Part shown: in pieces, positions 7,130 to 53,755 of the stretch | Layout of the letters: the number at the start of each line of letters is the position of its first letter | Position numbering within the stretch: the first letter of the stretch is position 1 | Assembly: GCA_016285085.1 (NCBI GenBank) | Contig: JAEEQA010000002.1 | Coordinates: 21,390 to 85,389 of the forward strand | DNA from: Bacteroidales bacterium | Lineage (GTDB): Bacteria; Bacteroidota; Bacteroidia; Bacteroidales; WCHB1-69 | Reading direction: 5' to 3' | DNA: 64,000 nucleotides | Translations under genes and position numbers: made by a program | The notes under the pieces: model-generated | The model's input: only the letters and a program-made list of their open reading frames with translations | Databases searched by the model: none | What the model was told of the DNA's origin: nothing

Positions 7130-7159
7130 TGTAGAGACGCAAAATTTTGCGTCTCTACA
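7130..7159. repeat. GTAGAGACGC palindromic element (perfect 30-nt palindrome, AT loop)
   Basis: TGTAGAGACGCAAAATTTTGCGTCTCTACA, intergenic upstream of mutS. Confidence 0.9.
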
Positions 7160-7270
7160 CACCGCCTTGTTTCACAATAACGCCCGCAAAAATACGACAA
7201 AATTACATCATTTCGTATGTAACCCGTGTTTTTTTGCAAAAATGGCGGACAAAATCTCATAAAATTCGTG

Positions 7271-7278
7271 TACCTTTG
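7271..7278 (+). promoter_or_regulatory. -7 box TACCTTTG (mutS)
   Basis: TAnnTTTG followed by CGCC, 21 nt before ATG 7299. Confidence 0.55.
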
Positions 7279-7298
7279 CGCCTCAAAATCGTGCAAGT

Positions 7299-9905
7299 AT
7301 GGGAAAACAGGCGGAAACCCCGTTAATGAGGCAGTACAACCAGTTCAAAGCGAAGTATCCGGATGCTATTTTGCTGTTTCGGGTGGGTGACTTTTATGAA
7401 ACTTTCGGCGAGGATGCCGTGAAGACCTCGCAAATTCTCGGAATTGTGCTCACCAAACGGTCGAACGGGGCCGCCGCCGACCAGGACCTTGCCGGATTTC
7501 CGCATCATGCACTCGACACCTACCTTCCCAAACTGGTCCGGGCCGGCTACCGTGTCGCCATCTGCGACCAGCTGGAAGACCCAAAACTCACCAAAACCCT
7601 TGTCAAACGCGGTATCACCGAACTGGTAACCCCCGGCATCGCCACCAACGACAAGATTTTGGAACAGAAGGAGAACAACTTCCTCGGGGCCATCCATTAC
7701 GACAGCAACTGCAGCGGCATTGCCTTTGTGGATGCCTCCACCGGCGAATTTTACCTCGCCGAAGGCAATAACGAGTACATTGACAAACTGTTGCAGAATT
7801 TCAAACCCGCTGAAATGGTGATCCAGAAGGGAAAGGTGCAGGAGTTCCGCGAACATTTCGGGGAGAAGATTCTGCTCACCACCTTTGAGGACTGGGTCTT
7901 CACCTCCGACTACACCGTGCCTCTGTTGACCCAACACTTTCAGACGAACTCTTTAAAAGGTTTCGGTATCGAAAATCTCACCAAAGGCATCATTGCTGCC
8001 GGCGCTGCCCTCCACTACCTCAGCGAAACCCAGAACCATAAGGTACAACATATTAACAAGTTGAACCGAATTGAGGAAGAACATTACGTCTGGCTCGACC
8101 GCTTCACCATCCGGAATCTGGAACTGATCCACTCCCCCAACGAAAATGCGGTGACCCTGCTGCAAATCCTTGACAAAACCCTCACCCCGATGGGCGGCCG
8201 CCTCCTCAAGAAATGGATTCTGATGCCCCTGAAGGAGAAAATGCTGATTGAGGAACGGCTTTCCGTGGTCAATTTCCTCATTGACAATGAGGAATTTAAA
8301 TGCGATATTGAAGCCCTTGTCCGCACCATTGGCGACCTGGAGCGTATCGGCTCGAAGATTGCCACGGGCAAGGTGAACCCTCGCGAACTCTTACAACTGG
8401 CGCGGGCACTCCGTTCCATCGCCGCCCTGCAGAAACTGTGCGCGGCACAGTCACAACCTGCCCTCAACAAAATGGCGGAACAACTGAATCCGTGCCTGTC
8501 GGTTTGCAAACGCATTGAAAACGAGATAAGTGAGGATGCTCCCGTGGCCATCAACAAGGGACGGATTTTCAAGAAAGGGGTGGATGCCGAATTGGACGAA
8601 CTCACCTCGCTTTCGCAGAACAGCAAGGCGATTTTGGCGGAAATCCAGCGTCGCGAGACCGAAAAAACAGGCATTTCCTCCCTCAAAATCGGATTCAACA
8701 ACGTGTTTGGCTATTATTTGGAGGTGACCAACGCCCATAAGGACAAGGTCCCGGCCGAATGGATCCGCAAGCAGACCCTCACCAACGCCGAACGCTATAT
8801 CACTGAGGAACTTAAAGAGCTAGAAAGCAAAATCCTGGGCGCAGAGGACAAAATCCTGAGCATCGAAACGCGCCTGTTCAATGAATTGGCCCTCTCCCTC
8901 ATCGACTATATCCCGATGATTCAGACGGACGCCCGTATTGTCGCCAGAATTGATGTACTTTCCTGTTTTTCAACTATTTCTAAAGAAAATCAATACATCC
9001 GGCCCGTCATTGACGACAGCACCGTGATTGACATCAAGGGTGGACGGCACGCCGTGATTGAAACGCAGCTGCCGCCAGGAGAATCGTACATTGCCAACGA
9101 TGTGTATTTGGATAACGAAAAACAGCAGATCATCATCATCACCGGACCCAACATGTCGGGTAAGTCGGCGCTGCTGCGGCAAACGGCGCTGATTGTGTTA
9201 ATGGCGCAGATGGGCTGCTACGTTCCCGCCGTCAGCGCCCGCATCGGCGTGGTGGACAAGATCTTCACACGCGTCGGGGCTTCCGACAACATCTCCACCG
9301 GTGAATCCACTTTCATGGTCGAGATGAACGAGACGGCCAGCATCCTCAACAACATCTCCAACCGGAGCCTCGTGCTTTTGGACGAAATCGGCAGAGGAAC
9401 AAGTACTTACGACGGTGTTTCCATCGCTTGGGCCATTGCCGAATATCTGCATGAACACCCCGTACACCGTGCCAAGGTGCTGTTTGCCACCCACTACCAT
9501 GAGTTGAACGATATGGCGGCGCAGTTCAAACGCATCAAGAACTACCATGTTTCCGTCAAGGAAGTGAACAATAAAATCCTGTTTTTAAGGAAGTTGAAAG
9601 AAGGAGGAAGCGAGCACAGTTTCGGTATCCACGTGGCAAGGATGGCCGGGATGCCCCAACAGGTGCTGAACCGCGCCGACGAGGTGCTGAAGCAGTTGGA
9701 GGAGAGCCACAGCAGCAAGGAGGAACGAAGCATCAAGAAGAAACCCGCCCAAGCTGGCTACCAGCTCAGCTTTATCAATCTGGACGACCCGCTGCTGCTG
9801 GACATCAAAGACATCATCATTGATTTGGATATCAATTCGTTAACACCCGTAGAGGCCTTGATGAAATTGAATGAAATCAAAACGATGCTGACACGGGGTA
9901 AATAA
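7299..9905 (+). CDS. mutS: DNA mismatch repair protein MutS
   Basis: 868 aa. N-terminus [34 protein letters not shown]. Walker [16 protein letters not shown] and [12 protein letters not shown] motifs. Confidence 0.97.
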
Positions 9906-9910
9906 TGTCA

Positions 9911-10729
9911 TTAGCGCACGGAAAACACATTTTTGCCATTCGCCTTCAACACCTCCTGTGCCGCCTGGTTCTGCATAATGGCACCGCCCCATTCGTTGAA
10001 ATCATACACATTAGGTTCTCTGAACCAATTATTTACATTCATTCTCAAGGTGATTTCCGATGTGGTGGACTCGCCTATTTCCAAAGAGGCAAGCGGCAAG
10101 GTGACGGTAAAGAAATTATGGACAAATCCCGTGATTTCCCCATCTTGATAGGTTTGGCCTATGCCGCTGTGCAGGCAGAAAGGCGTCAATTCATCGTTGG
10201 TATTCAACCACTTGCCATTGATTTGCATATAGTGGTAGCCGCCGCCGATGGGTTCAGGCCACGCCATGTTGGTTTCCGGTGGATTGACGAAAAAGCCCGT
10301 GACGTTCTGTGCGGCATCCAAGCCGAAGACAAAAGAGATGCTTTTGTATTTTCCTACAGATAACTCATCGTCAATCAACCAATTAAAGGTTGAAGAAATA
10401 TCGGAGTCGTAGTAATGGATTCCGTCATTGTCGGTAACGGACACCTGTGTGCCGTCGGATTTGGTCAGCACCACGCGGGAGATGAAGTAACGGACCTCAT
10501 TAACCTCGTAGTGATTTCCCGCATCGTTCACATAATCAAGCACATCATATTGCAAGGTATGGCCATCCACCTCGGTGACGAAATGCACTTTGAGGTGGCC
10601 TGTTGGAACGGGTTTTTTACAACCAATGAAACAAAACAGGAATAACAGCAGGAACAGAATACGTTGTAGAGACGCAAAATATTGCGTCTCTACGATTACG
10701 AATTTATGGGTTTTAACCATATTATCCAT
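9911..10729 (-). CDS. MbnP-like lipoprotein
   Basis: The track ORF 9911-10894 overlaps the upstream gene, so I start it at the internal ATG 10729 (or 10720). Lipobox LFLFCFIGC. The body resembles the MbnP family (VRYFISRVVLTKSDGTQVSV, GGGYHYMQINGKW, MNVNNWF); this is pattern-level recognition only. The n-region of the signal peptide contains a palindromic repeat (VETQYFASLQ). Confidence 0.5.
   Translation of the reverse strand: MDNMVKTHKFVIVETQYFASLQRILFLLLFLFCFIGCKKPVPTGHLKVHFVTEVDGHTLQYDVLDYVNDAGNHYEVNEVRYFISRVVLTKSDGTQVSVTDNDGIHYYDSDISSTFNWLIDDELSVGKYKSISFVFGLDAAQNVTGFFVNPPETNMAWPEPIGGGYHYMQINGKWLNTNDELTPFCLHSGIGQTYQDGEITGFVHNFFTVTLPLASLEIGESTTSEITLRMNVNNWFREPNVYDFNEWGGAIMQNQAAQEVLKANGKNVFSVR
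10666..10693. repeat. GTAGAGACGC palindromic element
   Basis: GTAGAGACGCAAAATATTGCGTCTCTAC, inside the predicted N-terminal region of the MbnP-like CDS. Confidence 0.9.
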
Positions 10730-10733
10730 TTTT

Positions 10734-10774
10734 CTACTACCCTGGCCTACGGCCACCCCTTCTACATAGAAGGG
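10734..10774. repeat. double-hairpin REP-like element (CTACTACCC-GC hairpin-ACCCCTTCT-loop-AGAAGGG)
   Basis: CTACTACCCTGGCCTACGGCCACCCCTTCTACATAGAAGGG. It fills the 50-nt gap between two minus-strand genes. Confidence 0.8.
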
Positions 10775-10779
10775 AAATT

Positions 10780-11334
10780 TTACCATTCGTCGGTTTTTTC
10801 GGCGGCGGGCTGCATGCCGTCCACCAGGGAGGAGATGAGGGCCTGGATCTGTTCGTCCACCTCCTGGAGGTTGATGAAACATTCGGGATCCCATTTTTTA
10901 TCCTCGGGATTGAGCCACCGTTCAATGGGGGCTGCAGCTGTCGCTTTTTCATTGAAATCGGTGATGGTATAGCGGTAGCGGCCGTCGCGGCACTGGAGTT
11001 TAAAATTGTAATAGACCACGTTCTTTGTCAGTTTGGAACCGTCTTTCTGGTGGGAATAGATTCGGACGGAGGAGCGGAAATCGATGACGTGGTTGGTAGC
11101 GTCGTTGTTTTTGATGACTTCGGCGGTGTTCTTGTAGAACGACTTGGCCCATTTCAAGGCGCGTTCATACAGCTCCTGTGCGGAGCCGTTTTCTTGTATA
11201 ACCTCCTTGTACGTAATAAGTTGTGTTTCATCATCAATGGGCATGTCCGGCGCAACGGGAGCGGTGCCTTTTTTCTGTGAAAAGCCTGTCATTGCTACGG
11301 CGAGCAACATAACGAACAAAAAAATCCTTTTCAT
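10780..11334 (-). CDS. DUF4468-like secreted protein
   Basis: Start taken at MKRIFLFVMLLAVAMTGFSQ (ATG 11334), preceded by a TAnnTTTG box. The upstream track extension translates the promoter. Domain call from general resemblance (YERALKWAKSFY..., RYRYTITDF). Confidence 0.55.
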   Translation of the reverse strand: MKRIFLFVMLLAVAMTGFSQKKGTAPVAPDMPIDDETQLITYKEVIQENGSAQELYERALKWAKSFYKNTAEVIKNNDATNHVIDFRSSVRIYSHQKDGSKLTKNVVYYNFKLQCRDGRYRYTITDFNEKATAAAPIERWLNPEDKKWDPECFINLQEVDEQIQALISSLVDGMQPAAEKTDEW

Positions 11335-11357
11335 AACAATTGGGTTTAATGGAGCGG

Positions 11358-11365
11358 CAAAGATA
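11358..11365 (-). promoter_or_regulatory. -7 box TATCTTTG (DUF4468 gene)
   Basis: TAnnTTTGCCGC, 24 nt before ATG 11334. Confidence 0.55.
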
Positions 11366-11404
11366 CAACTTTTCTTCAAAAGGTTTTTCTAATATTCGAT
11401 ACAA

Positions 11405-11444
11405 CTACCCCGCGCTTCGCGCACCCCTTCTTGGCAAGAAGGGG
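11405..11444. repeat. double-hairpin REP-like element
   Basis: CTACCCCGCGCTTCGCGCACCCCTTCTTGGCAAGAAGGGG. Confidence 0.8.
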
Positions 11445-11449
11445 AAGAA

Positions 11450-11482
11450 AAAAAGCCGCCCTTGGACGGAGCGGCTTTTTTT
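11450..11482. terminator. bidirectional rho-independent terminator candidate
   Basis: AAAAAGCCGC-ccttggacgga-GCGGCTTTTTTT, directly downstream of the 11499 T9SS gene. Confidence 0.65.
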
Positions 11483-11498
11483 ATGGTGATTTTAAAAA

Positions 11499-12860
11499 TT
11501 AGCGGACGATGCTCACTTTAGCGGTGGAAACTTCGTTGCCATTGACCACGCGGACGATGTAGAGACCGGCGTTGAGGTTGCTGACATTGAGGGTTTCGTT
11601 GGCTTCAGCGTTTTCGACGGACATCACTTCCTGACCGGCGATGTTGTACACAGAGATCTGTGAACCAGCAGCATTCTCCACATTGATGGTAGTGCTTGCC
11701 GGGTTCGGGGAAACCGTCAAAGTGTTTGTATTCTCGGAAATGCTAACATCATTAGCGTTGGTAACCGTGATGCAATAAGTGTCGTTATTTACATCATTAT
11801 CAATGCAGGTGTAGTTGGAAGCCATTGTATAAGTGATGTGCATGCAGAGTTCAAACGGGAAGTCATAACCCATTCCCTGAAGTTCTTCCCAAGAAGTATA
11901 ATCGGGATCGTCATTACCCGGGAAAGTGAACAAAGCGATGGGCTGCCATGAATAAATGTAACCAGCCAACATAGAATCCATAGCGCTGATGGTATCAGCC
12001 TGGAGGAAATAAGCGGGTTCAGTAGCGGTCGGGCAATCAATGTAAATATCCGTCATAAGATCGCCATAAAACATATCAATACCGTCATTGCTCACGCCAA
12101 ATCTGCAATAGAATGCATCCTGAAGGTCGGGCTTGACAGCCATAGAAGTGATACGAACAGCGCCATCTTCTTCCGGATCCAAGAAAGTGGGAACCAGGTC
12201 GCACTTATTCACATAGGGCTGACCATCGTTGTAGTACACAGCCAAGGAGAAAGGCATCGGGTCATACTCTTCAGTATCGGCATCACCGAAAATATAACTT
12301 GCGATGACATCGGGATCTGCAGCTGCAAATCTTGCAAAATTGTGTGAATGTTTAGCTGAGTCGGGGGTACCCAAACCGATGTAAGAAGTACCATCCATCA
12401 CAATACCGATACAAAGAGACTCGCCAGCCACAACGGTGTAGGGAGTGGTGAAAGGAACTTGTTGAGCATCCGTTTCCATGGGAGCAGTGTATCCCTGTGA
12501 GAAAATGAGTTCACCCGGAGTCAAATGATGCTGGTCATCAACGGAGGGGTTACGATACAGATTAATCGTGTATTCCGTATTGGTGCAGCTAACAGACTGG
12601 TTGTACACATGAATAAAATAGACTTTTTCCAAGACCGAGCCAGCAGGAATTTCATCGGCATCAATCACCAAATAATAAGCATCTTCGGCAGAGGTCTGAC
12701 GAAAACCTGATTCCCAAGAGAAAGAACCATACCAGTCGGAACGATCAATGCTGGAAATATTTCCAACATAGTGTTCATGGTCAATGGGAGAAATTCTTTG
12801 CTGTGCAAAGCCCATTACTACAAATGCAGCAAGCATCAAGAAAGTAAACAGTTTTTTCAT
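11499..12860 (-). CDS. secreted protein with T9SS C-terminal sorting domain
   Basis: 453 aa. Signal peptide MKKLFTFLMLAAFVVMGFAQ. C-terminus LTVSPNPASTTINVENAAGSQISVYNIAGQEV...LNAGLYIVRVVNGNEVSTAKVSIVR is a typical Por_Secre_tail. Confidence 0.8.
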   Translation of the reverse strand: MKKLFTFLMLAAFVVMGFAQQRISPIDHEHYVGNISSIDRSDWYGSFSWESGFRQTSAEDAYYLVIDADEIPAGSVLEKVYFIHVYNQSVSCTNTEYTINLYRNPSVDDQHHLTPGELIFSQGYTAPMETDAQQVPFTTPYTVVAGESLCIGIVMDGTSYIGLGTPDSAKHSHNFARFAAADPDVIASYIFGDADTEEYDPMPFSLAVYYNDGQPYVNKCDLVPTFLDPEEDGAVRITSMAVKPDLQDAFYCRFGVSNDGIDMFYGDLMTDIYIDCPTATEPAYFLQADTISAMDSMLAGYIYSWQPIALFTFPGNDDPDYTSWEELQGMGYDFPFELCMHITYTMASNYTCIDNDVNNDTYCITVTNANDVSISENTNTLTVSPNPASTTINVENAAGSQISVYNIAGQEVMSVENAEANETLNVSNLNAGLYIVRVVNGNEVSTAKVSIVR

Positions 12861-12897
12861 AATTATTTATTTTAGGTTAGACATAAAATTTCCGCTG

Positions 12898-12905
12898 CAA
12901 AGATA
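12898..12905 (-). promoter_or_regulatory. -7 box TATCTTTG (T9SS protein 11499-12860)
   Basis: TAnnTTTGCAGC, 38 nt before ATG 12860. Confidence 0.5.
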
Positions 12906-12971
12906 CACTTTTTTTCGCAAAGAACGGAAAATGCGAGAAAATTAATGTTTTTTAGGAAATGAAACTGTGTG

Positions 12972-14660
12972 CTATATGATTCTATCCACCTCCCGGTAGA
13001 GGGCTTCGATGTCGTTGTTGTTTTGGAGAACCACATCGGCCCGGGCGATGCAGGCGGAAAGATTCTGCTTGTTCGGGTCGGTGGAGGTCATTTCGCGCCG
13101 CTCGTTCGCCAGAAATGTTTCAAAGGTGACATGGTCGGTCTCGGAATTGCGCAGCACGGCCCGACGGTACCGAATCTCGGGATCCGCATCCACGGCCCAA
13201 AGCCGGAAGTTGCCTTTGGCTTGCAGGGAGTCAATTTCGCCAGGCGTACGGATGCTTTCAATCACCGCGTCGTAGGTCTGCTGCGCCGCACGCTCGTACA
13301 GACAGTCGGTGACGTACGAAGGCGAGTGGGCCGCACGCAACTCATTGGCCACTTGTGTGAAAGAGTCACGATTCGGCTCCATGCCACGGCGCAACACCTC
13401 CTCTTTCAGGAAATCACGGACAGAAAAATGGACAAAGCCATACTTTTCCTTCAGGTACTCCACCACTGTCCCCTTCCCTGCCCCAAGCGTGCCGGTAATG
13501 CCGATAATGCGGATTTTACGACTTGATGAAATCGCATCCTTCAGATTATCAACAATATACTTCTGCATTTCATTCGTCATTTCGGTATGCATGGGAAGCG
13601 AAAGAACCGTGTGGGAGAGCTTTTCGGCCACCGGAAAATCACCCGCCTTGCAGCCGAACTTGGCAAACGCCTTCTGTTCGTGAATCGGAACGGGATAATA
13701 GACCATTGACGGGACACCTGCCGCCTTGAGCTTTTCTTGAACCTGATTCCGGTCAATGTTTTCATCCAAACAGAGCGTGAACTGGTGGTAAACGTGCGTG
13801 GTAAACGAAGCTACAGAAGGCACGGTGATGCCCGCACAACCGGAAAGAAGCCGACCGTATGTGTCCGCCGCTTTTTGTCGGGCGGAAGTGTAACTATCCA
13901 AGTACTTGAGTTTTACATTTAAGATGGCCGCTTGGATGCTGTCTAAGCGCGAGTTCACCCCGACCAAATCGTGGTGGTACTTCACAAAAGAGCCATGGTT
14001 GGCAATACCGCGCAGCTTGGTGGCAATTTCGTCATCGTTGGTGAAGATGGCGCCGCCGTCGCCGTAGCAACCGAGGTTCTTGGAGGGAAAGAAGGAGGTG
14101 CAGCCGATGGTGCCGATGGTGCCGGCTTTTCGGCGCGAACCGTCATGGAACGTCACCTCCGCGCCAATGGCCTGGCACGCATCCTCAATGACAAAAAGTC
14201 CGTGGCGTTCAGCAATTTCCATAATCCGCTCCATATCGGCGCACTGACCAAACAGGTGGACGGGCACGATGGCTTTCGTGCGGGGCGTGATGGCCGCCTC
14301 GATTTTGTCCACATCTATGTTATAGGTGTCGGGGCGGACATCCACAAAGACGGGGGTGAGTCCAAGCAACGCCACCACTTCCACTGTGGCGATGAAGGTG
14401 AACGGGGTTGTGATGACCTCGTCACCGGGCTGGAGACCGAGGGCCATCATCGAGATCTGCAGGGCGTCGGTGCCGTTGCCACAGGTGACGACGTGCCGGC
14501 AGCCCATATATTCCGCCAGGTTCTGTTGGAATTCTTTGACAATCGGTCCGTTTATAAACGCTGTTGAATCAATGACTTTTGAAATCTCGTTATCAATTTC
14601 TTCTTTAATTTTCCGGTATTGGCCTTTGAGGTCCACCATTGAAATCGTCGGGTTTTCCAT
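12972..14660 (-). CDS. fusion protein: DegT/DnrJ/EryC1/StrS-family sugar aminotransferase (N) + P-loop nucleotide/NMP-kinase-like domain (C)
   Basis: 562 aa. Residues 1-~370 are DegT-like (MVDLKGQYRKIKEEID..., TGTDALQISMMALG, FFPSKNLGCYGDGGAIFTND). Residues ~375-562 carry Walker A GITGTLGAGKGT and an NMP-kinase-like layout. Confidence 0.8.
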   Translation of the reverse strand: MENPTISMVDLKGQYRKIKEEIDNEISKVIDSTAFINGPIVKEFQQNLAEYMGCRHVVTCGNGTDALQISMMALGLQPGDEVITTPFTFIATVEVVALLGLTPVFVDVRPDTYNIDVDKIEAAITPRTKAIVPVHLFGQCADMERIMEIAERHGLFVIEDACQAIGAEVTFHDGSRRKAGTIGTIGCTSFFPSKNLGCYGDGGAIFTNDDEIATKLRGIANHGSFVKYHHDLVGVNSRLDSIQAAILNVKLKYLDSYTSARQKAADTYGRLLSGCAGITVPSVASFTTHVYHQFTLCLDENIDRNQVQEKLKAAGVPSMVYYPVPIHEQKAFAKFGCKAGDFPVAEKLSHTVLSLPMHTEMTNEMQKYIVDNLKDAISSSRKIRIIGITGTLGAGKGTVVEYLKEKYGFVHFSVRDFLKEEVLRRGMEPNRDSFTQVANELRAAHSPSYVTDCLYERAAQQTYDAVIESIRTPGEIDSLQAKGNFRLWAVDADPEIRYRRAVLRNSETDHVTFETFLANERREMTSTDPNKQNLSACIARADVVLQNNNDIEALYREVDRII

Positions 14661-14673
14661 TTCTTTAAATTTG

Positions 14674-14730
14674 GCGGCAAAAATACCATAAAATCAGTTA
14701 TAAAGTTGCAGGTTCATCAAGTTCATCAAG
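14674..14730 (-). repeat. left copy of a 56-bp inverted repeat (promoter/leader module of the degT-kinase fusion gene)
   Basis: GCGGCAAAAATACCATAAAATCAGTTATAAAGTTGCAGGTTCATCAAGTTCATCAAG. Its reverse complement matches 19476-19531 with 2 mismatches by hand alignment. Confidence 0.85.
14678..14685 (-). promoter_or_regulatory. -7 box TATTTTTG (degT-kinase fusion)
   Basis: TAnnTTTGCCGCC, 18 nt before ATG 14660. Confidence 0.55.
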
Positions 14731-14772
14731 TAAAAGGTAAATGGTAGAAAGTAGGGAGTTAAAAGGTGAAAA
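14731..14772 (+). repeat. degenerate heptad array (TAAAAGG TAAATGG TAGAAAG TAGGGAG TTAAAAG GTGAAAA)
   Basis: 7-nt periodicity read directly. Preceded by a 2x GTTCATCAA 9-mer. Confidence 0.7.
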
Positions 14773-14790
14773 GAGTTTGAAAGTTTGTTG

Positions 14791-14798
14791 TAACTTTG
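14791..14798 (+). promoter_or_regulatory. -7 box TAACTTTG (pfkB-ispE operon)
   Basis: TAnnTTTGCGGCC, 22 nt before ATG 14820. Confidence 0.55.
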
Positions 14799-14819
14799 CG
14801 GCCTCAAATTTCACAAATC

Positions 14820-15797
14820 ATGAAAAGAGTTTTAGGCGTAGGAAACGCATTGGTGGACGTGATTGTCAATCTTCCCGATGAGGCTTTGTTTCAGGAATTT
14901 TCCTTGCCGAAAGGCGGAATGGAAATGATTGATGTCGAGCGGAAAAGAAAGCTTCACGCGGCCATTTCAAGCATGAAACAGAAGCTGGCTTCGGGCGGCT
15001 CCACCTCCAACACCATCCACGGACTGGCCCGTTTGGGCGCACCGACCGGTTACATCGGAAAGGTGGGAAACGACGAAATGGGTGATTTTTTTGAAGCCGA
15101 CATGAAAAAAAGCGGCATCCATCCCCACCTCATCCACACCTCGGAAACGGACACGGGCATTGCCACCACGCTGATGACGCAGGATGCGGAACGCACTTTC
15201 GCAACCTACCTCGGCGCGGCAGCCTCTATGTCACCGGAAGAAATTGACAATGAGATATTTAAAAATTACGACTGCATCCATGTGGAGGGTTATCTGATTT
15301 TCAACCACGATCTTATTCTGGAGATCTGCAAAAAAGCCAAAGCCAACGGCCTGAAAATCTCGATGGACATGGCTTCCTTCAATTTGGTGAAAGACCACCA
15401 CGATTTTGTGGAAATGCTTCTGAAAGAATACGTTGACATCCTGTTTGCGAACGAAGAAGAAGCGGCAGCGTTCACCGGCAAAAGCGGCGAAGAGTCGTTA
15501 GACATCCTTTCCCAATACTGTGAAACGTGCGTGGTGAAACTCGGGAAACACGGCTCGGTGGCGAACATCAACGGACAGAAAGCCCGCATCGGGACGAGCG
15601 GCGTGAAGGCTCTCGACACCAACGGAGCGGGCGATGCCTACGCTTCCGGATTCCTCTATGGCCTTATCAATCAGTACACTCCGGAAAAAACGCTCCGTTT
15701 GGCTTCCCGCATCGCGGACGAAATCATCGTGACTGCCGGTGCCAAACTTTCGGACGAACAATGGGCGAAAATCCGCAACGAAAAAGAACTGTTTTGA
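14820..15797 (+). CDS. PfkB-family carbohydrate/adenosine kinase
   Basis: Start at MKRVLGVGNALVDV (ATG 14820; the track starts at an upstream TTG). PfkB motifs GGSTSNT and DTNGAGDAYASGFLYG. Confidence 0.8.
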   Translation: MKRVLGVGNALVDVIVNLPDEALFQEFSLPKGGMEMIDVERKRKLHAAISSMKQKLASGGSTSNTIHGLARLGAPTGYIGKVGNDEMGDFFEADMKKSGIHPHLIHTSETDTGIATTLMTQDAERTFATYLGAAASMSPEEIDNEIFKNYDCIHVEGYLIFNHDLILEICKKAKANGLKISMDMASFNLVKDHHDFVEMLLKEYVDILFANEEEAAAFTGKSGEESLDILSQYCETCVVKLGKHGSVANINGQKARIGTSGVKALDTNGAGDAYASGFLYGLINQYTPEKTLRLASRIADEIIVTAGAKLSDEQWAKIRNEKELF

Positions 15798-16588
15798 CCG
15801 GAAAATCCAATTTCAAAATCAATCTGGGACTGTACGTCACCGAAAAGCGTCCTGACGGCTTCCACAATTTGGAAACGGTCTTCTATCCTGTTGACAATCT
15901 GTGCGATACTATTGAGATAGAACCTGCCGACGAAGTCACCTTCGAGATGGTGGGCGGGGATTTTACGACAGACCCAGAAAAGAACCTGTGTGTCAAGGCG
16001 TTCCGGATATTACAGAAAACATATCTTCTCCCTGGCGCTTCCATTCGATTGGACAAAAAAATTCCGTCAGGTGCTGGCCTCGGCGGGGGATCAGCGGATG
16101 CGGCGACGGTGCTGAAATTGACGAACGAACTTTTCAACTTACAGATTTCCAATAGTTTGATGAAAGAGTACGCCGCCTCACTCGGCAGCGACTGCGCCTT
16201 TTTCATTGACAACGTTCCATCCTACGCCACCGGTAAAGGGGAGCTATTGACCCCCATCAATGTAAATCTGGCGGGCAAGGTGATTTCCGTTTTCAAGCCG
16301 AAAGTGTCGGTTTCCACCGCCGAAGCTTACGCGCACGTCACTCCCCTACCCGGCCGACCGAACCTCCGAGATTTGACAAAAGAGCCGATTGAACGATGGA
16401 AATATTTGATTGTCAATGATTTTGAAAAATCAGTATTTCAGAAATTTCCTGTTTTAGCCGATATTAAAAACAAGTATTACGCGTTAGGCGCAGACTACGC
16501 TTCTATGTCAGGCAGCGGATCAGCACTGTTCGCCATTGCCGACAAACCCATCCAACTTTGTCCCTATTTTTCTGGTATTGATTTATAA
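15761..16588 (+). CDS. ispE: 4-diphosphocytidyl-2-C-methyl-D-erythritol kinase
   Basis: KINLGLYVTEKRPDGFHNLETVF and the GHMP motif PSGAGLGGGSADAA. The start is uncertain: ATG 15761 (37-nt overlap with the upstream gene) or TTG 15794 (4-nt overlap). The longer track ORF (15527) is an out-of-frame read through the pfkB gene. Confidence 0.85.
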   Translation: MGENPQRKRTVLTGKSNFKINLGLYVTEKRPDGFHNLETVFYPVDNLCDTIEIEPADEVTFEMVGGDFTTDPEKNLCVKAFRILQKTYLLPGASIRLDKKIPSGAGLGGGSADAATVLKLTNELFNLQISNSLMKEYAASLGSDCAFFIDNVPSYATGKGELLTPINVNLAGKVISVFKPKVSVSTAEAYAHVTPLPGRPNLRDLTKEPIERWKYLIVNDFEKSVFQKFPVLADIKNKYYALGADYASMSGSGSALFAIADKPIQLCPYFSGIDL

Positions 16589-16606
16589 ATGAGATAATTA
16601 ACCGAA

Positions 16607-17923: not shown

Positions 17924-17925
17924 CG

Positions 17926-18468: not shown

Positions 18469-18490
18469 AATTTATTTGGTTCTGTTTGTC

Positions 18491-18518
18491 GTGGAGACGC
18501 GATGAATCGCGTCTCCAC
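18491..18518. repeat. palindromic element variant (GTGGAGACGC), likely also a terminator hairpin
   Basis: GTGGAGACGCGATGAATCGCGTCTCCAC, a 13-bp stem between the radical SAM gene and rfbC. Confidence 0.85.
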
Positions 18519-19299: not shown

Positions 19300-19300
19300 A

Positions 19301-19335: not shown

Positions 19336-19464
19336 GATTTTCAAACGAAGCCGCCTCTTGTTTATTGTTTGTTTTTTCAATCTTTTCAACCTTCTGCATT
19401 ATACCTTTTACCTTACATTTTCTTTGATTGAACGAACGATCGTGCTAATGCTGAGAGCACGGTT

Positions 19465-19476
19465 GTGCGTCTCTAC
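19465..19476. repeat. half copy of the palindromic element (right arm only)
   Basis: TGTGCGTCTCTAC with no matching left arm. Confidence 0.6.
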
Positions 19477-47729: not shown

Positions 47730-50700
47730 ATGAAAAAATTTATATTTTTCACGTGTCTGATTTTGGTTATTCATTTGATTTATGGACAGAGTGGAGGCAA
47801 TTTTTATTATGCCGAGGGTCAACAGCATTTCTTTTCAACGGATTCTACATCTGTTAATATCCTTGTCAGAAATATGCAACATTATGACACTATTGCAAAA
47901 GCTATATCTGCTTTTTATTCTGATTCTTCTGAATATGCGGTATACTATGACAATGAAGACGATAACATTATTGTAAGTAGCAAATCTATTGTGCTGCGAA
48001 ATATCGATTCCTTGCTACAACAACTTGCTCCAAATAATAACGACATTGCTTTTATCAGCTATGCCAAACAAATTGGTGGTAGTCATTTTTGGTTAAGGAA
48101 TGAAGTGTATGTGAAATATAGGGATTCTCTTCAAGCTGTAGCAGATTTATCAAATGTTTTATCCTTATACACAGTTGAGCAGGTTGTATATGAAGGTGAT
48201 TATGAATACAGACTGATCATCAACGACGAAAATCAACTATTGAACCTTGCTAATTCGTTATATGATACGTCTAAGGTAATATATTCTACCCCTGACTTTT
48301 ACGGCGAAATAGAACTTAACACCTCCGATACGTATTTTGAAAGACAATGGGGGTTATTGAATATTGGCCAAGAAGGCGGACAATCAGGATATGACATTAA
48401 TGCCGAATTAGCGTGGGATTTTTTAAGTGACCTTTTTGGAAATTCCACATTCCCTACAATCAAGGTGGCAGTCATTGACGATGGTGTTGAAAATCATGAA
48501 GATATGTATGACTCAAATGGGCAAAGTAAGGTCTTACAAGGATGTACTCCAGGATGGACGGACCACGGTGCACCAGTCCCTAAGAGCAAACATGGTGAAT
48601 GTTGCGCTGGTATAATAGCTGCCTCTCACAATTCCATTGGTATAGCCGGAGTTGCAGAAAACACTCAAATAATCCCGATAAGAATCTTCAAAAGAACAAA
48701 TTTAAAAGCATTCAGTTACGCTCGCATTGCAAAAGGTATTACTAAGGCGTGGAAAGAACTTGGTGCAGATATTCTTAGTAACTCTTGGTCTGAAAAAGAT
48801 ATTACTGTATCAAATGACAAATTAAACAATGCTATAACAAAAGCATTGTCAAGTGGTCGTAATAACAAAGGATGCGTTGTTGTTTTTTCTTCAGGGAACA
48901 ATAATACTTTCGTTAACTATCCTGCAAATCAAAGTGGGGTTATTGCAGTTGGAGGTATTGAACGATGTGGCTGGAGAGCAGGGAACCATCTTACTGCATA
49001 TATGTGTGACCATTGGAATGGTTCTTCCTATGGCAGTTGCTTTGGCAGTGCTTTGAGTGTGGTTGCACCTGCAACTAATATTTGGGCTACAGATAGACAG
49101 GGTAATGGGTATGGCTACGATGAATATAGTAAATATATCACATTTAATGGAACATCCGCTGCTTGCCCTCACGTTTCGGGGGTTGCTGCGCTAATGCTAA
49201 GCGTTAATCCCTCTTTAACACAGAATCAAATACACTCTATTATCAATAGTACAGCCCAAAAGATCACTCATTACGAATTCGTCATCAGCAATGGTCACAA
49301 TGATGGCACATGGAACAATGACGTTGGATACGGTCTTGTTGATGCACACAAGGCTGTCTGTGAAGCTAGGTTGTTTGGACATTCCTTTGCCATCCAAGGT
49401 GCAACAACAGTGAACACCTGTTCTAATTATACTTATTCTTTAATTGGGAATTTGCCACCTGAATTCAATATCGTTTGGGAAGTGAATCCCCAAATGATTA
49501 TCATTGAAGGTCAAGGAACCACTCAGGTATTAGTTAAACCCGTATATCCAGCAACAGGAAACACTGTAGTTGCCCATATTTGTCATGGTGGGGAAATAAT
49601 TAGGACTATTGACAATTTAGGATACATTGTTTCTTATGGTACAAACTATTCTATGGCGATTTCGTCAGATAGCACATTGACATCCAATATTATTTGGGGA
49701 GACAAAAGACAATTGGCCTATACTCTTTCCATTGATTCATTGGCTACTCTTACCATTACAGATACTCTGCTTTGCGTTTCTGGTTCCCGCATCATCGTGC
49801 GTCCGGGCGGGAAGCTCATCGTGAACGGCGGCACGCTCACCAATGCGTGCGATGGCGAGATGTGGGAGGGCATCTTCGTGGAAGGCAACCGAGACCTGCG
49901 GCAGCTGGCAACAAGGCAGGGCAGCGTCATCCTTACCAATGCCACCATCGAAAACGCCCGCAACGCCATCTCCACACGGGGCTTTGAAGAAAGCACCTGG
50001 TGGTACAAGACGGGCGGCATCGTTCAGGCCACCAACACGCTGTTCCGCAACAACCGCCGCAGTGTTGAGTTCCTCGACTACGAGAACCACAAGTCAAGCG
50101 GAGGCATCGCCAGCAACGCCAGCCACTTTGACCGTTGCACCTTCACGGTGGACGACGACAACCTGTTCGCTGAAAACGACGCTACCTTCGGCAGCCATGT
50201 GACGATGTGGAAAGTCCGCGGCGTGAAGTTCAACGGCTGCACCTTCCGCAACGAGACGGTTGAGCATGTGGGGCTGACACGGGGCAGTGCCATCACTGCG
50301 GAGGAGGCGGGGTTCTTTGCCCAGCGAGTGTGCCCGCGCGTGTTGCCCCAAGACCCGTGTATGTGCCTTCCGTTGGGCAGCGACACGGTGACGCGCTGCA
50401 GTTTCGAAGGGTTCCACAAAGCGGTGAATGCCACCAACACCTTCGGGAACTACGACATCACCCTCGACAACTGCGACTTCGCCCACAACCACGCGGGTGC
50501 AACGCTGTCTGCAGCGGACAACGCAAGAGTGAGCTTCTGCGACTTCGACCTGTCGGACACGCTCTCCTACTGCGGGATAGAACTCGAAAACAGCACGGGC
50601 TACACGGTGGAGGAAAACTTTTTCCACAGACAGTACAACACCAATGCCTACAAAGTGACCGGAATCTATGTGGGAAACAGCGGCACGTCGGAGAATGTGA

Positions 50701-51995
50701 TCCGCAAGAACAGCTTCAGCAACGTCAATTGGGGAATCGCAGCCACAGGGACAAATGCCCTCAATTCAAGGACAAGGATTCCCGGCCTTCAATTTGAATG
50801 CAATAGTTTTGCTGGTGGCAAGACCGACATTTCTGTGAACAGTGGCACCGTCCGAGGGACACAAGGTTCCGCTTCTGCAGGAGCTGACAACGTGTTCACC
50901 GGCTTGTGGTCAAGCCAGAGCATTGTGCTGTCCGCCGCCAACAACATAACCTATTATTACAGCAATGGAACAAATCATATTCCGAACAATTCCAGCACAG
51001 GGGTGACACCAGTGGGTTCCGCTACGGCCAACGGCTGCGCCTCAAGCCTGTGCGGCATGCAGGTGAACCCGAAGGGCACCGGAACAGCCCTGGCGCAATA
51101 CCGTGCGCTGGCGGAAGAATATGCGGATCTGGCAGAGACGTGGTGCACCGCGTCTCTACAGCCAACCGACACGATGATGCCCGACAATCCGCAGGATGCG
51201 GAAACCGCCACCCTGCAATCGCGGCTGTCGGACCTGTCGGCGGCGATGGGCGACCTTGCCCGCACCGAAATCCGCGCCATCCTGTCCGACACCGTGGTGG
51301 ATATGGCGCTGCTGAAGGAATGGTACCGCGCCATTGTAGAGGCGTGGTGCACCGCGCCTCTACAGGACACCATACAAACCGACATCCCTGTGGCGGCCTA
51401 CCAGCTGGCGGAGGTGTACAGCCACGAGGGGGATTACGCCGCGGCCAACGCCGTGCTGTCCTCCCTCCCTGAACGGTTCAACCCGGACGAGGCCTCGCGG
51501 AACGAATACGGCAACTACCTCGCCCTCCAGCGGCTGCGGGAGAATGTGTCGGGCAACTGGTACCGCCAGACGGACACGGAAATCGCCGACCTGCAACGGG
51601 TGGCGGAATACGACAACGGCCGCGCCGCCCGCATGGCGAAGGAAATCCTCTGTTTCTTCCACCACATCTGTTATGAGGACGAACCGATTCTGCCGGAATT
51701 GTCCGATGGTGCAATCGGGGAACGCAACGCCCGTAGAGACGGGGCGCGCCCCGTCTCTACGACAACCGGCAATCTCACCCTCCACCCCAACCCCGCGCAC
51801 ACCACCCTCACGGTGGAATCCGACAGCCCCGTCCGCGAAATCACCATCTACGACCTGACGGGAAAAACGATGATGACAGTTGGAAATTGTCCGTCGCCCG
51901 CAACCGTAAATGTTGTATCTTTGCCGCGTGGCATCTACCTGCTCCGCGCCGTGACGGAAGAGGGGGCGCAGACAGCACGGTTCGTAAAGAACTGA
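47730..51995 (+). CDS. S8 (subtilisin-family) serine peptidase with parallel beta-helix region and T9SS C-terminal sorting domain
   Basis: 1421 aa. Catalytic motifs VAVIDDGV (Asp), HGECCAGIIAA (His), GTSAACPHVSGVAALM (Ser). Residues ~690-1050 have beta-helix-like repeats (NCxF/NNxA). C-terminus LTLHPNPAHTTLTVES...IYDLTGKTM...GIYLLRAVTEEGAQTARFVKN. Confidence 0.9.
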   Translation: MKKFIFFTCLILVIHLIYGQSGGNFYYAEGQQHFFSTDSTSVNILVRNMQHYDTIAKAISAFYSDSSEYAVYYDNEDDNIIVSSKSIVLRNIDSLLQQLAPNNNDIAFISYAKQIGGSHFWLRNEVYVKYRDSLQAVADLSNVLSLYTVEQVVYEGDYEYRLIINDENQLLNLANSLYDTSKVIYSTPDFYGEIELNTSDTYFERQWGLLNIGQEGGQSGYDINAELAWDFLSDLFGNSTFPTIKVAVIDDGVENHEDMYDSNGQSKVLQGCTPGWTDHGAPVPKSKHGECCAGIIAASHNSIGIAGVAENTQIIPIRIFKRTNLKAFSYARIAKGITKAWKELGADILSNSWSEKDITVSNDKLNNAITKALSSGRNNKGCVVVFSSGNNNTFVNYPANQSGVIAVGGIERCGWRAGNHLTAYMCDHWNGSSYGSCFGSALSVVAPATNIWATDRQGNGYGYDEYSKYITFNGTSAACPHVSGVAALMLSVNPSLTQNQIHSIINSTAQKITHYEFVISNGHNDGTWNNDVGYGLVDAHKAVCEARLFGHSFAIQGATTVNTCSNYTYSLIGNLPPEFNIVWEVNPQMIIIEGQGTTQVLVKPVYPATGNTVVAHICHGGEIIRTIDNLGYIVSYGTNYSMAISSDSTLTSNIIWGDKRQLAYTLSIDSLATLTITDTLLCVSGSRIIVRPGGKLIVNGGTLTNACDGEMWEGIFVEGNRDLRQLATRQGSVILTNATIENARNAISTRGFEESTWWYKTGGIVQATNTLFRNNRRSVEFLDYENHKSSGGIASNASHFDRCTFTVDDDNLFAENDATFGSHVTMWKVRGVKFNGCTFRNETVEHVGLTRGSAITAEEAGFFAQRVCPRVLPQDPCMCLPLGSDTVTRCSFEGFHKAVNATNTFGNYDITLDNCDFAHNHAGATLSAADNARVSFCDFDLSDTLSYCGIELENSTGYTVEENFFHRQYNTNAYKVTGIYVGNSGTSENVIRKNSFSNVNWGIAATGTNALNSRTRIPGLQFECNSFAGGKTDISVNSGTVRGTQGSASAGADNVFTGLWSSQSIVLSAANNITYYYSNGTNHIPNNSSTGVTPVGSATANGCASSLCGMQVNPKGTGTALAQYRALAEEYADLAETWCTASLQPTDTMMPDNPQDAETATLQSRLSDLSAAMGDLARTEIRAILSDTVVDMALLKEWYRAIVEAWCTAPLQDTIQTDIPVAAYQLAEVYSHEGDYAAANAVLSSLPERFNPDEASRNEYGNYLALQRLRENVSGNWYRQTDTEIADLQRVAEYDNGRAARMAKEILCFFHHICYEDEPILPELSDGAIGERNARRDGARPVSTTTGNLTLHPNPAHTTLTVESDSPVREITIYDLTGKTMMTVGNCPSPATVNVVSLPRGIYLLRAVTEEGAQTARFVKN
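51134..51157. repeat. palindromic element inside the S8 peptidase CDS
   Basis: AGAGACGTGGTGCACCGCGTCTCT, translated AETWCTASLQ. Confidence 0.8.
51335..51364. repeat. palindromic element variant inside the S8 peptidase CDS
   Basis: TGTAGAGGCGTGGTGCACCGCGCCTCTACA, translated VEAWCTAPLQ. Confidence 0.85.
51732..51761. repeat. palindromic element inside the S8 peptidase CDS (perfect 30-nt palindrome, GC loop)
   Basis: CGTAGAGACGGGGCGCGCCCCGTCTCTACG, translated RRDGARPVST. Confidence 0.9.
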
Positions 51996-52161
51996 AAATT
52001 GAAAACCTCCTACCTGTCACCTATCACCTTTTACGAACCTGCCGATTAGCCGCCATACTATGACGGCTCTACCAAATTAGAACCGTACCCCCCTTCACTT
52101 CTTAGTTTCTTAACTCCTTAACTCTAAACTTTAGACTTTTCACTTTACCCCCCAAATAGTT
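51991..52161 (+). repeat. G-depleted leader module, copy C (ends at ATG 52162)
   Basis: Starts ACTGAAAATTGAAAACCTCCTACCTGTCACCTATCACC. The TGA inside ACTGAAA is the stop codon of the S8 peptidase. Confidence 0.85.
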
Positions 52162-53340
52162 ATGAAAACACCCCGAACCTTTTTCCGAGCATTTCTCCTT
52201 CTGACGCTGCTGGTGGCGGGAGGGAACATCGCGGTGGCGCAAACAGACAGTTGTGCCGTGAACGTGATCCACACCTATATGAATGGGCGGCTTATCCCGT
52301 GGGACAGCGTGAAAATCAAGGTTTGTGAGCCCCCTTGTGAGAGGCCCTACCATTACCACACTTTTATGCTCTATTGGCCCGACACGTTGCTGACCAATTG
52401 TACAACAGGCATAGAGGAGTACGTCTCGGCACAGGAGACAGAGTTGTCACAAGTCTTTCCAAACCCCTGTGCTGGAACGAGCCAAGTGAAGCTGACCTTA
52501 CGGAATTCAGGAATAGTTTCTGTGAGTGTGATGGATTTGCAAGGACGGCTTTGTTGCCGGAAAACGCTGCAACTTTCGTCTGGCGAGCACCTGTTATCGC
52601 TGACGCTGCCCCAAAACGGGTTCTACTTTGTGCAGGCCGAAAGCCCGCAGGGCAGCGAAGTGTGCAAGGTGCTCTGTACGGAGGGTGAAGGCTCTGATTT
52701 CGACATCCGTCTGACATCCACCTCTTTCCAAACAATGGAAAGGATTGAAAAAGCAAGCAAAGGGGGCGAGGGATTATTCAATATGACGGACAAGATGCTA
52801 ATCACCGCGTACATTACATATACAGGGGAAGTGAGAACTTGGCAATGGAGTATAAATTACGATTTGGAGTTGGATGGGGAAGTGACTAGTGAGTGGATGT
52901 CAAATATTGGATCCCTAAATATTCATTATACTGAAACTGACAGTTGTGATAACTTCACTCTTTCTGACAGAAATTTCAACGTGATTATTGCGAGTAGTAT
53001 TTGTTTGCCAACAATGGAATATCCTGTGGGTTATCGTGTTACATTCTATGATTCAACTTTTTATTCAGAGCCGACCTCCTTAGCAGCATATACAAGTTCC
53101 ACTTGGTATTTTAATGGGTGGTACAAATATCGGTATTACCCCGAAGATCTTGGAGGATGTATTTGCATCGGAGATATAAATGGGGAGATGCCACCTGAAC
53201 ATATTGATTACTATGGACAACTATCACCTTATGATTATTGCATACGACACTTGGACAAATTAACTTGCAATGAATTTAAACTTTATAAATTCACAGTATA
53301 TGGGAATGATGATGTGGAAGTTTTTGTTAGTAACGAATAA
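52162..53340 (+). CDS. secreted protein with an internal T9SS-CTD-like domain, hypothetical
   Basis: 392 aa. Signal peptide MKTPRTFFRAFLLLTLLVAGGNIAVAQ. Residues ~94-175 (LSQVFPNPCAGTSQVKLTL...GFYFVQAESPQGSEVCKVL) look like a Por_Secre_tail but are followed by ~220 more residues. Paralog of the gene at 63292. Confidence 0.65.
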   Translation: MKTPRTFFRAFLLLTLLVAGGNIAVAQTDSCAVNVIHTYMNGRLIPWDSVKIKVCEPPCERPYHYHTFMLYWPDTLLTNCTTGIEEYVSAQETELSQVFPNPCAGTSQVKLTLRNSGIVSVSVMDLQGRLCCRKTLQLSSGEHLLSLTLPQNGFYFVQAESPQGSEVCKVLCTEGEGSDFDIRLTSTSFQTMERIEKASKGGEGLFNMTDKMLITAYITYTGEVRTWQWSINYDLELDGEVTSEWMSNIGSLNIHYTETDSCDNFTLSDRNFNVIIASSICLPTMEYPVGYRVTFYDSTFYSEPTSLAAYTSSTWYFNGWYKYRYYPEDLGGCICIGDINGEMPPEHIDYYGQLSPYDYCIRHLDKLTCNEFKLYKFTVYGNDDVEVFVSNE

Positions 53341-53350
53341 ATTGAAAAAT

Positions 53351-53755
53351 ATGAAAGCAGCAATAAAAATATTGTTTATAGTCTGTGGTTTTATCTTTTT
53401 GTTCGTTTTCCACCCTTGTTTCGGACAAACACAGGACAAAGAAAGCATCTATGACAGACAAGGAAATAAAATATATTTTGACAAGGTAGAGGATGTCTTT
53501 CATATCGGATTTGCAGAAGGAACGGAGGCTAATACAAGAAATGAGGTACTAGCAGATCTTTCAAATATTGCTAACTACACTATGTTTCCCGACAGTTCGT
53601 ATCGTCTTATTATAAAACAAGGCTGTTCTGCTTTTTTCAAAGAAAAAGCATTAAAGAACAATGTTGTGACCTATTGTACCACCTTACAATACCGACGATT
53701 AGACGCACAACCGTGCGTCTCTACATACATTTTCCTCTTAACTCTTGACTCTTGA
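53351..53755 (+). CDS. small secreted protein, hypothetical
   Basis: Start at MKAAIKILFIVCGFIFLF (ATG 53351 inside the track ORF 53270). The C-terminal 20 codons run through a palindromic repeat and into the CTCTTRA array. Confidence 0.5.
   Translation: MKAAIKILFIVCGFIFLFVFHPCFGQTQDKESIYDRQGNKIYFDKVEDVFHIGFAEGTEANTRNEVLADLSNIANYTMFPDSSYRLIIKQGCSAFFKEKALKNNVVTYCTTLQYRRLDAQPCVSTYIFLLTLDS
53701..53724. repeat. palindromic element, left arm partly degraded
   Basis: AGACGCACAACCGTGCGTCTCTAC, in the last codons of the 53351 CDS (DAQPCVSTY). Confidence 0.7.

Follow-up and report, generated by a model that had tools for sequence, protein, structure and literature searches.

Palindromic 28-nt repeats in a Bacteroidales contig are very probably double-foot REPs of TnpA-REP subclass 2.4

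A stretch of 64,000 nucleotides (nt) of contig JAEEQA010000002.1 from a Bacteroidales bacterium, hereafter the window, carries a family of 28-nt palindromic repeats. These elements are very probably 'double-foot' repetitive extragenic palindromic (REP) sequences of TnpA-REP subclass 2.4, the class that corresponds to Group 4 of the REP-associated tyrosine transposases (RAYTs), with a domesticated chromosomal HUH/Y1 enzyme acting on them in trans. The kind of repeat has already been described, and the finding itself is ordinary. Double-foot REPs are the least studied REP type, and their variable centre leads to their being undercounted by k-mer methods. For the window the main value of the assignment lies in annotation: the 28-mers explain odd peptides (VETxxxxSLQ and RRDxxxxVST) inside a secreted S8 protease. 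The assignment also implies that this rumen Bacteroidales lineage carries, or once carried, a RAYT of Group 4.

The repeat family in the window

The repeat family of the window is real and non-random. It follows the pattern GT[AG]GAG[AG]CG-N10-CG[CT]CTC[CT]AC and comprises five intact and three decayed copies in 64 kb, where roughly 0–1 copies would be expected; three or four of the eight are intragenic. Exact matches to GTAGAGRCG-N(4-14)-CGYCTCTAC number four (7131-7158, 10666-10693, 51336-51363 and 51733-51760) against 0.00 expected from 100 dinucleotide shuffles of the window. A sequence-agnostic scan for hairpins starting with GT[AG]G and ending with C[TC]AC returned five against 0.22 in shuffles, adding 18491-18518, and relaxed arm matching further added 51132-51159, where the left foot reads GCAG, and 53697-53724, with a decayed left foot. 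The feet of the five two-footed copies are GTAG/CTAC in four and GTGG/CCAC in one, and one foot has decayed in each of the other three. A first-pass annotation of the window had listed eight repeat sites, all of which are present, with only small corrections of coordinates: the starts at 51134 and 53701 move to 51132 and 53697, and the site at 19465-19476, taken to be a right arm only, possesses a decayed left arm starting at 19453. The two perfect 30-nt palindromes that it had reported, 7130-7159 and 51732-51761, were confirmed.

The unit is 28 nt long with a 10-nt centre in all window copies. Folded as single-stranded DNA (ssDNA), the intact copies form stems of 12-13 bp with energies of -13 to -15 kcal/mol and z-scores of -5.5 to -9. 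The lower 9 bp of the stem, GTAGAGACG/CGTCTCTAC and compensated variants of it, are conserved, and the upper stem and loop are variable. Three centres, CAAAAT[T/A]TTG, TGGTGCACCG and CACGGTTGTG, each occur twice within the window, which indicates copying. The centre CACGGTTGTG of the copy at 19453 is the reverse complement of that of the copy at 53697, and the two copies, sharing a centre in opposite orientation, thus form one subfamily.

Correspondence to published double-foot REPs

Quentin et al. (2018; BMC Genomics 19:475; PMC6006769) sort TnpA-Y1 proteins into subclasses and describe double-foot REPs with 5' GT[AG]G and 3' C[TC]AC for subclass 2.4, in Bacteroidota, cyanobacteria and other phyla, often lying in frame inside genes, tnpA-REP itself included; they suggest that the double-foot REP could have arisen from an inverted dimer via a central deletion. 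Subclass 2.4 corresponds to Group 4 in the RAYT classification of Bertels et al. (2017). Table S1 of Quentin et al. gives GTAGAGACGCACGGCCGTGCGTCTCTAC next to the subclass-2.4 gene of Chloroflexus aggregans, and the window arms GTAGAGACG/CGTCTCTAC equal that entry; the sister REP forms given in the article include GTAGGGGCG...CGCCCCTAC and GTAGAGACA...TGTCTCTAC. The window elements agree with these published REPs in architecture (28 nt made up of a GT[AG]G foot, a 12-bp stem, a 4-nt loop and a C[TC]AC foot), in arm sequence, in the taxa concerned (Bacteroidetes, Cyanobacteria and scattered phyla) and in their habit of in-frame insertion, and no structural difference was found. Variation of the centre at fixed sites, the missing target-site duplication and the phage copies, all detailed below, are additional to what was found in the portions of the article covered. 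The raw arm sequences, looked for in literature text, gave primer matches only.

Distribution across genomes and association with RAYT genes

A scan of one genome per species with GTAGAGACG-N(6-12)-CGTCTCTAC, from which 8-kb loci were taken, yielded at least 120 genome loci. Among the matches listed, 46 are from Cyanobacteria, 43 from Bacteroidota, 11 from Chloroflexota and six from other members of the Fibrobacteres–Chlorobi–Bacteroidetes group, and the remaining ones are spread over 13 other taxa at 1-2 per taxon (Acidobacteriaceae with two). Together with at least 120 viral stretches, these loci bear out the enrichment far beyond the window for which the first-pass annotation had proposed a pattern scan. 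Copies across genomes are biased towards extragenic positions: 9 of 113 copies (8%) lie deep in long open reading frames (ORFs) versus 555 of 1190 random positions (47%).

A subclass-2.4-like RAYT gene is present in six of the 120 listed 8-kb loci (L020, L022, L053, L081, L104 and L112), against about 0.4 per 120 blocks estimated for chance co-occurrence with a gene at 1-2 copies per genome. REPs lie on both sides of the RAYT gene in L022, L053 and L104 and in frame within it in L020, L081 and L112. Subclass 2.4 or Group 4 is defined by the HuH motif NH[IFV]H, the W motif WQ, the Y motif YIxNNP and a length of about 190 amino acids (aa); the six proteins were recognised by NH[FL]H, WQ and YIxNNP motifs. 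The L022 protein reads NHFH...WQSRYHDH...YIFNNP, those of L053, L081, L104 and L112 have NHLH and YI[KRSI]NNP, and that of L020 has YIIDNP; the WQ motif is missing in L053 and L112. The trimmed proteins are 177-241 aa long, REP inserts included. All six match the NCBIfam model NF047646, 'REP-associated tyrosine transposase' (E values of 1e-9 to 1e-18), and weakly match Pfam Y1_Tnp, and their sole PDB match is 4ER8, the E. coli TnpA-REP, over the HuH and WQ...Y regions. Both the published double-foot REPs and the six RAYT loci elsewhere thus support the earlier suggestion of a RAYT-like enzyme that acts in trans and recognises the arms.

Settings of the individual copies

The eight copies and their settings are listed in Table 1.

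Table 1. Copies of the 28-nt repeat in the window, their condition and their surroundings
Feature	Coordinates	Condition	Sequence	Setting
REP copy	7130..7159 (28-nt core 7131-7158)	Intact; perfect 30-nt palindrome	TGTAGAGACG-CAAAATTTTG-CGTCTCTACA	Divergent spacer, YqfB-like gene (6667-7092, minus) / mutS (7299-9905, plus)
REP copy	10666..10693	Intact; one asymmetric loop base	Centre CAAAATATTG	Flanked by the upstream gene's stop codon and an MbnP-like lipoprotein's signal peptide (minus strand); in frame on the minus strand as VETQYFASLQ
REP copy	18491..18518	Intact; GTGG/CCAC feet	GTGGAGACG-CGATGAATCG-CGTCTCCAC	57-nt spacer of a co-directional minus-strand pair, radical SAM gene (18526-19299) and dTDP-sugar isomerase gene (17926-18468)
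REP copy	19453..19476	Decayed; left foot lost, 1-nt deletion in left arm; fold -5.9 kcal/mol	GAGA-GCAC-GGTT-GTGCGTCTCTAC	Divergent spacer, radical SAM gene (minus) / dihydrofolate reductase (DHFR) gene (19545-20036, plus)
REP copy	51132..51159	Left foot mutated (GCAG)	GCAGAGACG-TGGTGCACCG-CGTCTCTAC	In frame in ORF 47730-51995; AETWCTASLQ, residues about 1135-1144
REP copy	51336..51363	Compensated arms GAGGCG/CGCCTC	GTAGAGGCG-TGGTGCACCG-CGCCTCTAC	In frame in ORF 47730-51995; VEAWCTAPLQ, residues about 1203-1212
REP copy	51733..51760	Intact	GTAGAGACG-GGGCGCGCCC-CGTCTCTAC	In ORF 47730-51995, using the other open frame; RRDGARPVST, about 17 residues ahead of the C-terminal sorting domain of the type IX secretion system (T9SS)
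REP copy	53697..53724	Decayed; left foot lost	GATTAGACG-CACAACCGTG-CGTCTCTAC	Convergent 3' spacer

These settings bear on whether the repeats could be regulatory RNA or DNA hairpins selected by the host as terminators, mRNA stabilisers or processing sites, with no transposase origin. Their folds are stable, the copy at 18491 stands in the short spacer of an apparent operon and that at 53697 in a convergent 3' region, and such roles have been proposed for REPs in the part of the literature covered. We nevertheless consider this origin very unlikely. A T tail was found at none of the eight copies, and most of them stand away from 3' ends. A terminator scan of the interval 6000-20500 scored none of its four copies, 18491 included, as terminator-like. 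Divergent 5' spacers hold two of the eight copies and coding sequence holds three or four, so the repeats are not restricted to 3' ends and the first-pass view that they are not simple terminators stands. Moreover, an Rfam scan returned no family match for the repeats and only three tRNAs, several phyla and also phages carry the same 28-mer in unrelated contexts, and there is a physical association of the element with RAYT genes.

A short intergenic tandem array of heptamers (CTCTTGA/CTCTTAA, about 13 units, within 53738-53830) adjoins the decayed copy at 53697.

Unit boundaries, flanking bases and constraint

Identical 28-mers were found between unrelated flanks, and the repeat unit is therefore exactly the 28-mer. 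The 28-mer at 7131 recurs in at least four genome loci and at least five viral loci and that at 10666 in at least 15 viral loci, in each case with unrelated flanks. A larger conserved unit, considered on account of BLAST extensions to L240 and L249, was rejected, as the flanks share nothing outside the 28-mer. Among 196 distinct copies, direct repeats of 1-5 nt occur at chance frequency (2-nt repeats: 14 versus 12 expected), and no target-site duplication was detected; T or C precedes the unit (-1) in 72% of copies and A or G follows it (+1) in 78%. The lack of duplication together with these pyrimidine/purine flanks fits the single-strand chemistry of HUH/IS200-type enzymes.

The same evidence bears on a different class of explanation, in which the repeat is a minimal MITE (a miniature transposable element with inverted repeats) of two abutted terminal inverted repeats mobilised by a DDE transposase, or else a palindromic operator or a BsmBI/Esp3I restriction-modification target that is bound as double-stranded DNA by a dimer. 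Many copies are symmetric as double-stranded DNA, loop bases included, and GAGACG/CGTCTC stands in both arms; outside the REPs, GAGACG occurs 10 times against a shuffle expectation of about 22.6 (sd 4.9) that refers to the whole window, a weak under-representation. In the whole window, however, GAGACG occurs 22 times against 22.6 expected, with 12 of the 22 inside REPs. The compensated arms GAGGCG and GCGGCG abolish the BsmBI site, and the sister families GTAGGGGCG and GTAGAGACA and the arms GAGGCG, GGGGCG and GAGACA have no such site. In addition, no target-site duplication accompanies the copies, the centre varies more than a sequence-specific dimer site would allow, the distribution extends over many phyla, and the recurrent neighbour gene encodes a Y1 HUH enzyme rather than a DDE transposase or a restriction-modification system. 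We therefore find this class of explanation hardly credible. The 'REP/MITE-like' label of the first-pass annotation is accordingly retained in its REP half, given the double-foot form and the RAYT association, and dropped in its MITE half, given the lack of target-site duplication in the 196 copies. The pairing of BsmBI/Esp3I sites, which had been flagged as maybe coincidental, gains no support as a type IIS link, as variant arms are without the site, and appears to be a coincidence.

The centre is free in sequence and constrained in pairing. Among 92 genome copies whose centre is 10 nt long, complementarity at the five centre pairs reaches 92, 95, 98, 90 and 85% versus 25% by chance, with many pair types, indicating that pairing is maintained while the sequence is free. 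In the genome copies this palindromy extends to the four innermost loop bases, at 85-90%, and it hints at self-templated hairpin correction or regeneration; among the phage copies, complementarity at one of the loop pairs is only 50%. Between the window copy and the L128 copy at the same MbnP-like junction, 0 of 18 arm bases and 8 of 10 centre bases differ, so that the arms are constrained and the centre is not; of the two, only the conservation of the arms is significant. Accelerated turnover of the centre at orthologous sites was considered and discarded, since four of five pairs changed at about 79% protein identity is not clearly above neutral drift.

Orthologous loci and strain contigs

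Orthologous loci, including L128-L130, were fetched with the MbnP-like protein. At the same MbnP-like junction, the window has the centre CAATATTTTG (gene strand), L128 (79% identity) has the centre TGCCATGGCG, and L130 (77%) has a decayed REP; no REP was found at this junction in L129 or in any orthologue at 55% identity or less, in many of which the lipoprotein ATG abuts the upstream stop codon. The REP of the mutS spacer is likewise missing from the alignable spacer in the relative L129. The comparison of orthologous loci that had been proposed for the window thus revealed presence/absence differences among relatives at two of its sites, the mutS spacer and the MbnP-like junction, with REPs in this lineage and in L128 and L130 and none in L129 or in more distant orthologues. 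Intact copies number one in 249 kb of related loci versus five in 64 kb of the window.

No ATG, GTG or TTG is present between the REP at 10666 and the signal peptide of the MbnP-like protein. Translation therefore starts upstream (MDNMVKTHKFVIVETQYFASLQRILFLLL...) and runs through the REP, or it uses a rare start codon, and the REP probably accounts for the extended N-terminus of the lipoprotein.

The same genes occur on metagenome contigs prefixed WILK20, XIEF21 and JAEEG, which are taken to derive from ruminant-gut samples. Of the strain contigs, L161 and L163 match the window without a difference and L162 matches it at 98.8% identity, and the copy at 53697-53724 is identical in L162 and L163. 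An apparent 26-nt length difference among the contigs with the YqfB-like gene proved to be a difference in gene calling.

REPs in the S8 protease gene and exchange of modules

The ORF at 47730-51995 is intact and encodes 1421 aa, with Peptidase_S8 at residues 244-535, a T9SS sorting domain at 1352-1418 and three in-frame REPs; an exact look-up of the 1421-aa protein gave no match. Homologues of its C-terminal part have REP peptides with other centres at these three sites, have them at additional sites, or have none. At the 51336 site the homologues read VETMCTSSLQ, VETFHETSLQ, METQNFASPQ or VGTCHGVSLQ, or have a gap, and at the 51733 site the strain contig L162 carries GTGGCGGCG-TGGTGCACCG-CGCCGCCAC.

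The module of linker, REP and sorting domain is common to C10, C25 and S8 peptidases, and some copies have clearly spread by recombination, as part of this module of host genes with its linker and T9SS sorting domain, and not by transposition. The 51733 site was first regarded as a possible proof of turnover through replacement of one REP (GTAGAGACG...GGGCGCGCCC) by another (L162, GTGGCGGCG...TGGTGCACCG) within flanks that are about 99% identical. This was rejected, as the homology upstream extends for about 20 nt only and is followed by an indel of 12 nt; the REP may come from a divergent paralogue that recombined onto a homogenised sorting domain.

Several observations touch the same gene. 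Its G+C content changes sharply, with about 37-42% in 2-kb windows over the 5' part of the ORF versus 59% in 50001-52000. At the position of the S8 gene, L162 (106-2334) has a gene for a 742-aa C25 peptidase, of which only the last approximately 280 nt, covering the T9SS domain, are shared, at about 99% identity, and in other metagenomes C10 peptidases carry the same module of linker, REP and C-terminal domain. This arrangement suggests that catalytic-domain cassettes may be swapped onto a constant secretion tag.

The orthologous and strain comparisons, taken with the S8 gene, raise the alternative that the window copies are fossils: a RAYT would once have been present and then lost, leaving inert relics maintained through vertical descent and through recombination of the host sequence around them. 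Three of the eight window copies are decayed, the window is without a RAYT, no polymorphism was seen among strain contigs, the same sites are retained in relatives at 77-79% protein identity, and the T9SS-adjacent REP travels with its module among S8, C10 and C25 protease genes. On the other side stand the five intact copies, a density far above that of related loci, the identical 28-mers in phage contigs and, at orthologous copies, the unchanged arms beside the diverged centre and flanks, which point to continuing constraint or homogenisation. On balance, we judge the fossil state to be unlikely.

Copies in phage contigs

The exact pattern occurs in IMG/VR viral contigs in at least 120 stretches (L164-L283) with at least 150 copies. 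The contigs are fragments of tailed phages, with portal, terminase, tape measure, tail sheath and Mu-like transposase genes. An origin of the small contigs from Microviridae, considered on account of the PHROG label 'DNA pilot', was accordingly rejected. Contigs of 19-25 kb have up to four REPs, mostly intergenic and between head, portal, terminase and tail genes, and a major head gene is bracketed by two REPs; L168 (559-2443), L171 and L231 are examples of REP-bearing viral loci. No RAYT of subclass-2.4 type was found in 1.06 Mb of these viral loci, and the term 'phage genome' was not found in the REP/RAYT literature examined.

It is conceivable, although we hold it to be doubtful, that double-foot REPs of host type colonise tailed-phage genomes in trans, seeded by a chromosomal RAYT. 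If this were true, phages would document the host range and also serve as a vehicle, which could explain the identical arms and 28-mers across phyla. REPs on phage contigs that have no RAYT thus offer a testable lead on how REPs move between genomes. The phage copies and the palindromy through the loop are the only points that go beyond the literature found.

In L168 (2416-2455), and also in L167, L169, L171 and L194, a partial extra right arm directly follows the REP (GCGTCTCTAC-GG-CGTCTCTAC); it may be the footprint of aberrant cleavage and rejoining.

Proposed mechanism and relation to known systems

Considering these results, we propose the following scenario for the double-foot REPs of the window, which draws on homology to the TnpA-REP enzymes of E. 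coli, Stenotrophomonas and Marinomonas. Where DNA becomes single-stranded, for example at the replication fork, the 28-nt unit would fold into a hairpin. A chromosomal HUH/Y1 enzyme of subclass 2.4 would bind this hairpin, reading the GTAG foot and the lower stem, and would cut and rejoin single strands, so that units could be copied or moved without target-site duplication; as the unit is palindromic, both strands would offer an identical substrate. After insertion, copies would be inherited vertically, with arms constrained and with the centre drifting while pairing is kept, and would eventually decay. Copies that fall in an open frame within tolerant linkers would persist as peptide insertions of about 10 residues. 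A cognate RAYT in this organism, now or formerly, is presumed, and the catalytic steps are presumed by analogy with the characterised enzymes. In these, cleavage and strand transfer take place on ssDNA and a perfect stem matters, and in S. maltophilia the GTAG foot is needed for cleavage, GCAG being barely cut and GTTG and GTAC uncut.

Several points weigh against this reading. As the first-pass annotation had stated, no RAYT-like enzyme is encoded in the 64-kb window: a motif regular expression, tblastn with six RAYTs and a custom hidden Markov model (ORFs of at least 40 aa) returned REP-encoded peptides only. Insertion polymorphism at strain level was not seen, the copy at 7130 being present in all seven contigs that carry the YqfB-like gene, with an identical site in the seven, and L161-L163 matching the window. 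In the REP/RAYT literature covered, biochemistry was found for the E. coli, S. maltophilia and Marinomonas systems and none for a subclass-2.4 enzyme or a double-foot REP. Palindromy through the loop is not required for hairpin recognition, and the spread of some copies with the protease module proceeds by recombination. Finally, Bertels et al. (2017) placed Group 4 outside the clearly REP-associated groups by a 16-mer criterion, with 14 occurrences, a moderate value; such a value is expected if only the 9-nt arms are conserved, and the variable centre would lower this measure.

The proposed system is related to several known ones. Like the REPs and bacterial interspersed mosaic elements (BIMEs) of E. 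coli (RAYT Group 2, subclass 2.2), double-foot REPs have GTAG at the foot of the hairpin and an ssDNA hairpin as substrate, belong with an HUH/Y1 enzyme whose gene lies in a REPtron flanked by its own REPs, and are mostly extragenic. However, E. coli REPs have a single foot, an imperfect stem with a bulge needed for recognition, and an arrangement in BIME pairs, whereas the window unit folds into a perfect hairpin that is self-complementary, bears a foot on either strand and leaves the centre free. REPINs (Bertels and Rainey, 2011) are similarly non-autonomous, combine two inverted REP halves, rely on a single-copy RAYT and form subfamilies within a genome, but they consist of two separate REP hairpins and a spacer, where the double-foot REP has just one hairpin of 28 nt. 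The subterminal hairpins of IS200/IS605 share the hairpin with a guide tetranucleotide, the Y1 HUH transposase, the single-strand chemistry and the lack of target-site duplication; they bound an element carrying tnpA/tnpB, whereas the double-foot REP is the hairpin alone and its enzyme is a single-copy chromosomal gene.

Rickettsia palindromic elements (RPEs) are 100-150 bp long. Di Nocera et al. (2013) describe RPEs as CGTC-tagged, and RPEs and the intragenic REPs treated there resemble the window elements as in-frame palindromes in host genes that apparently remain functional. Unlike RPEs, the window elements add only about 10 residues, and no RAYT association of RPEs was found in the REP literature covered.

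Other repeats and features

A second, unrelated small repeat, AGAAGGGGTG[G/C]CCG[T/A]AGG[C/G]C[A/G]GGGTAGTAGAA, forms the hairpin GGGTGNCC-GNA-GGNCNGGG with GTAGTAG on its 3' side, and its 22-nt core occurs twice in the window versus none expected. Its sites are 10733-10765 (minus), 40829-40863 and 40870-40902 in the window, a position upstream of the MbnP-like gene in L129, and 6305-6345 in L080; one copy directly adjoins the REP at 10666, and a tandem pair lies near 40.85 kb. Beside this second family, an intergenic tandem array of octamers, GGGGACAG/GGGTACAG, occupies 40755-40817. Three tRNA genes, unrelated to the REPs, lie at 25902-25974, 26638-26708 and 27290-27361 in a stretch of low G+C content.

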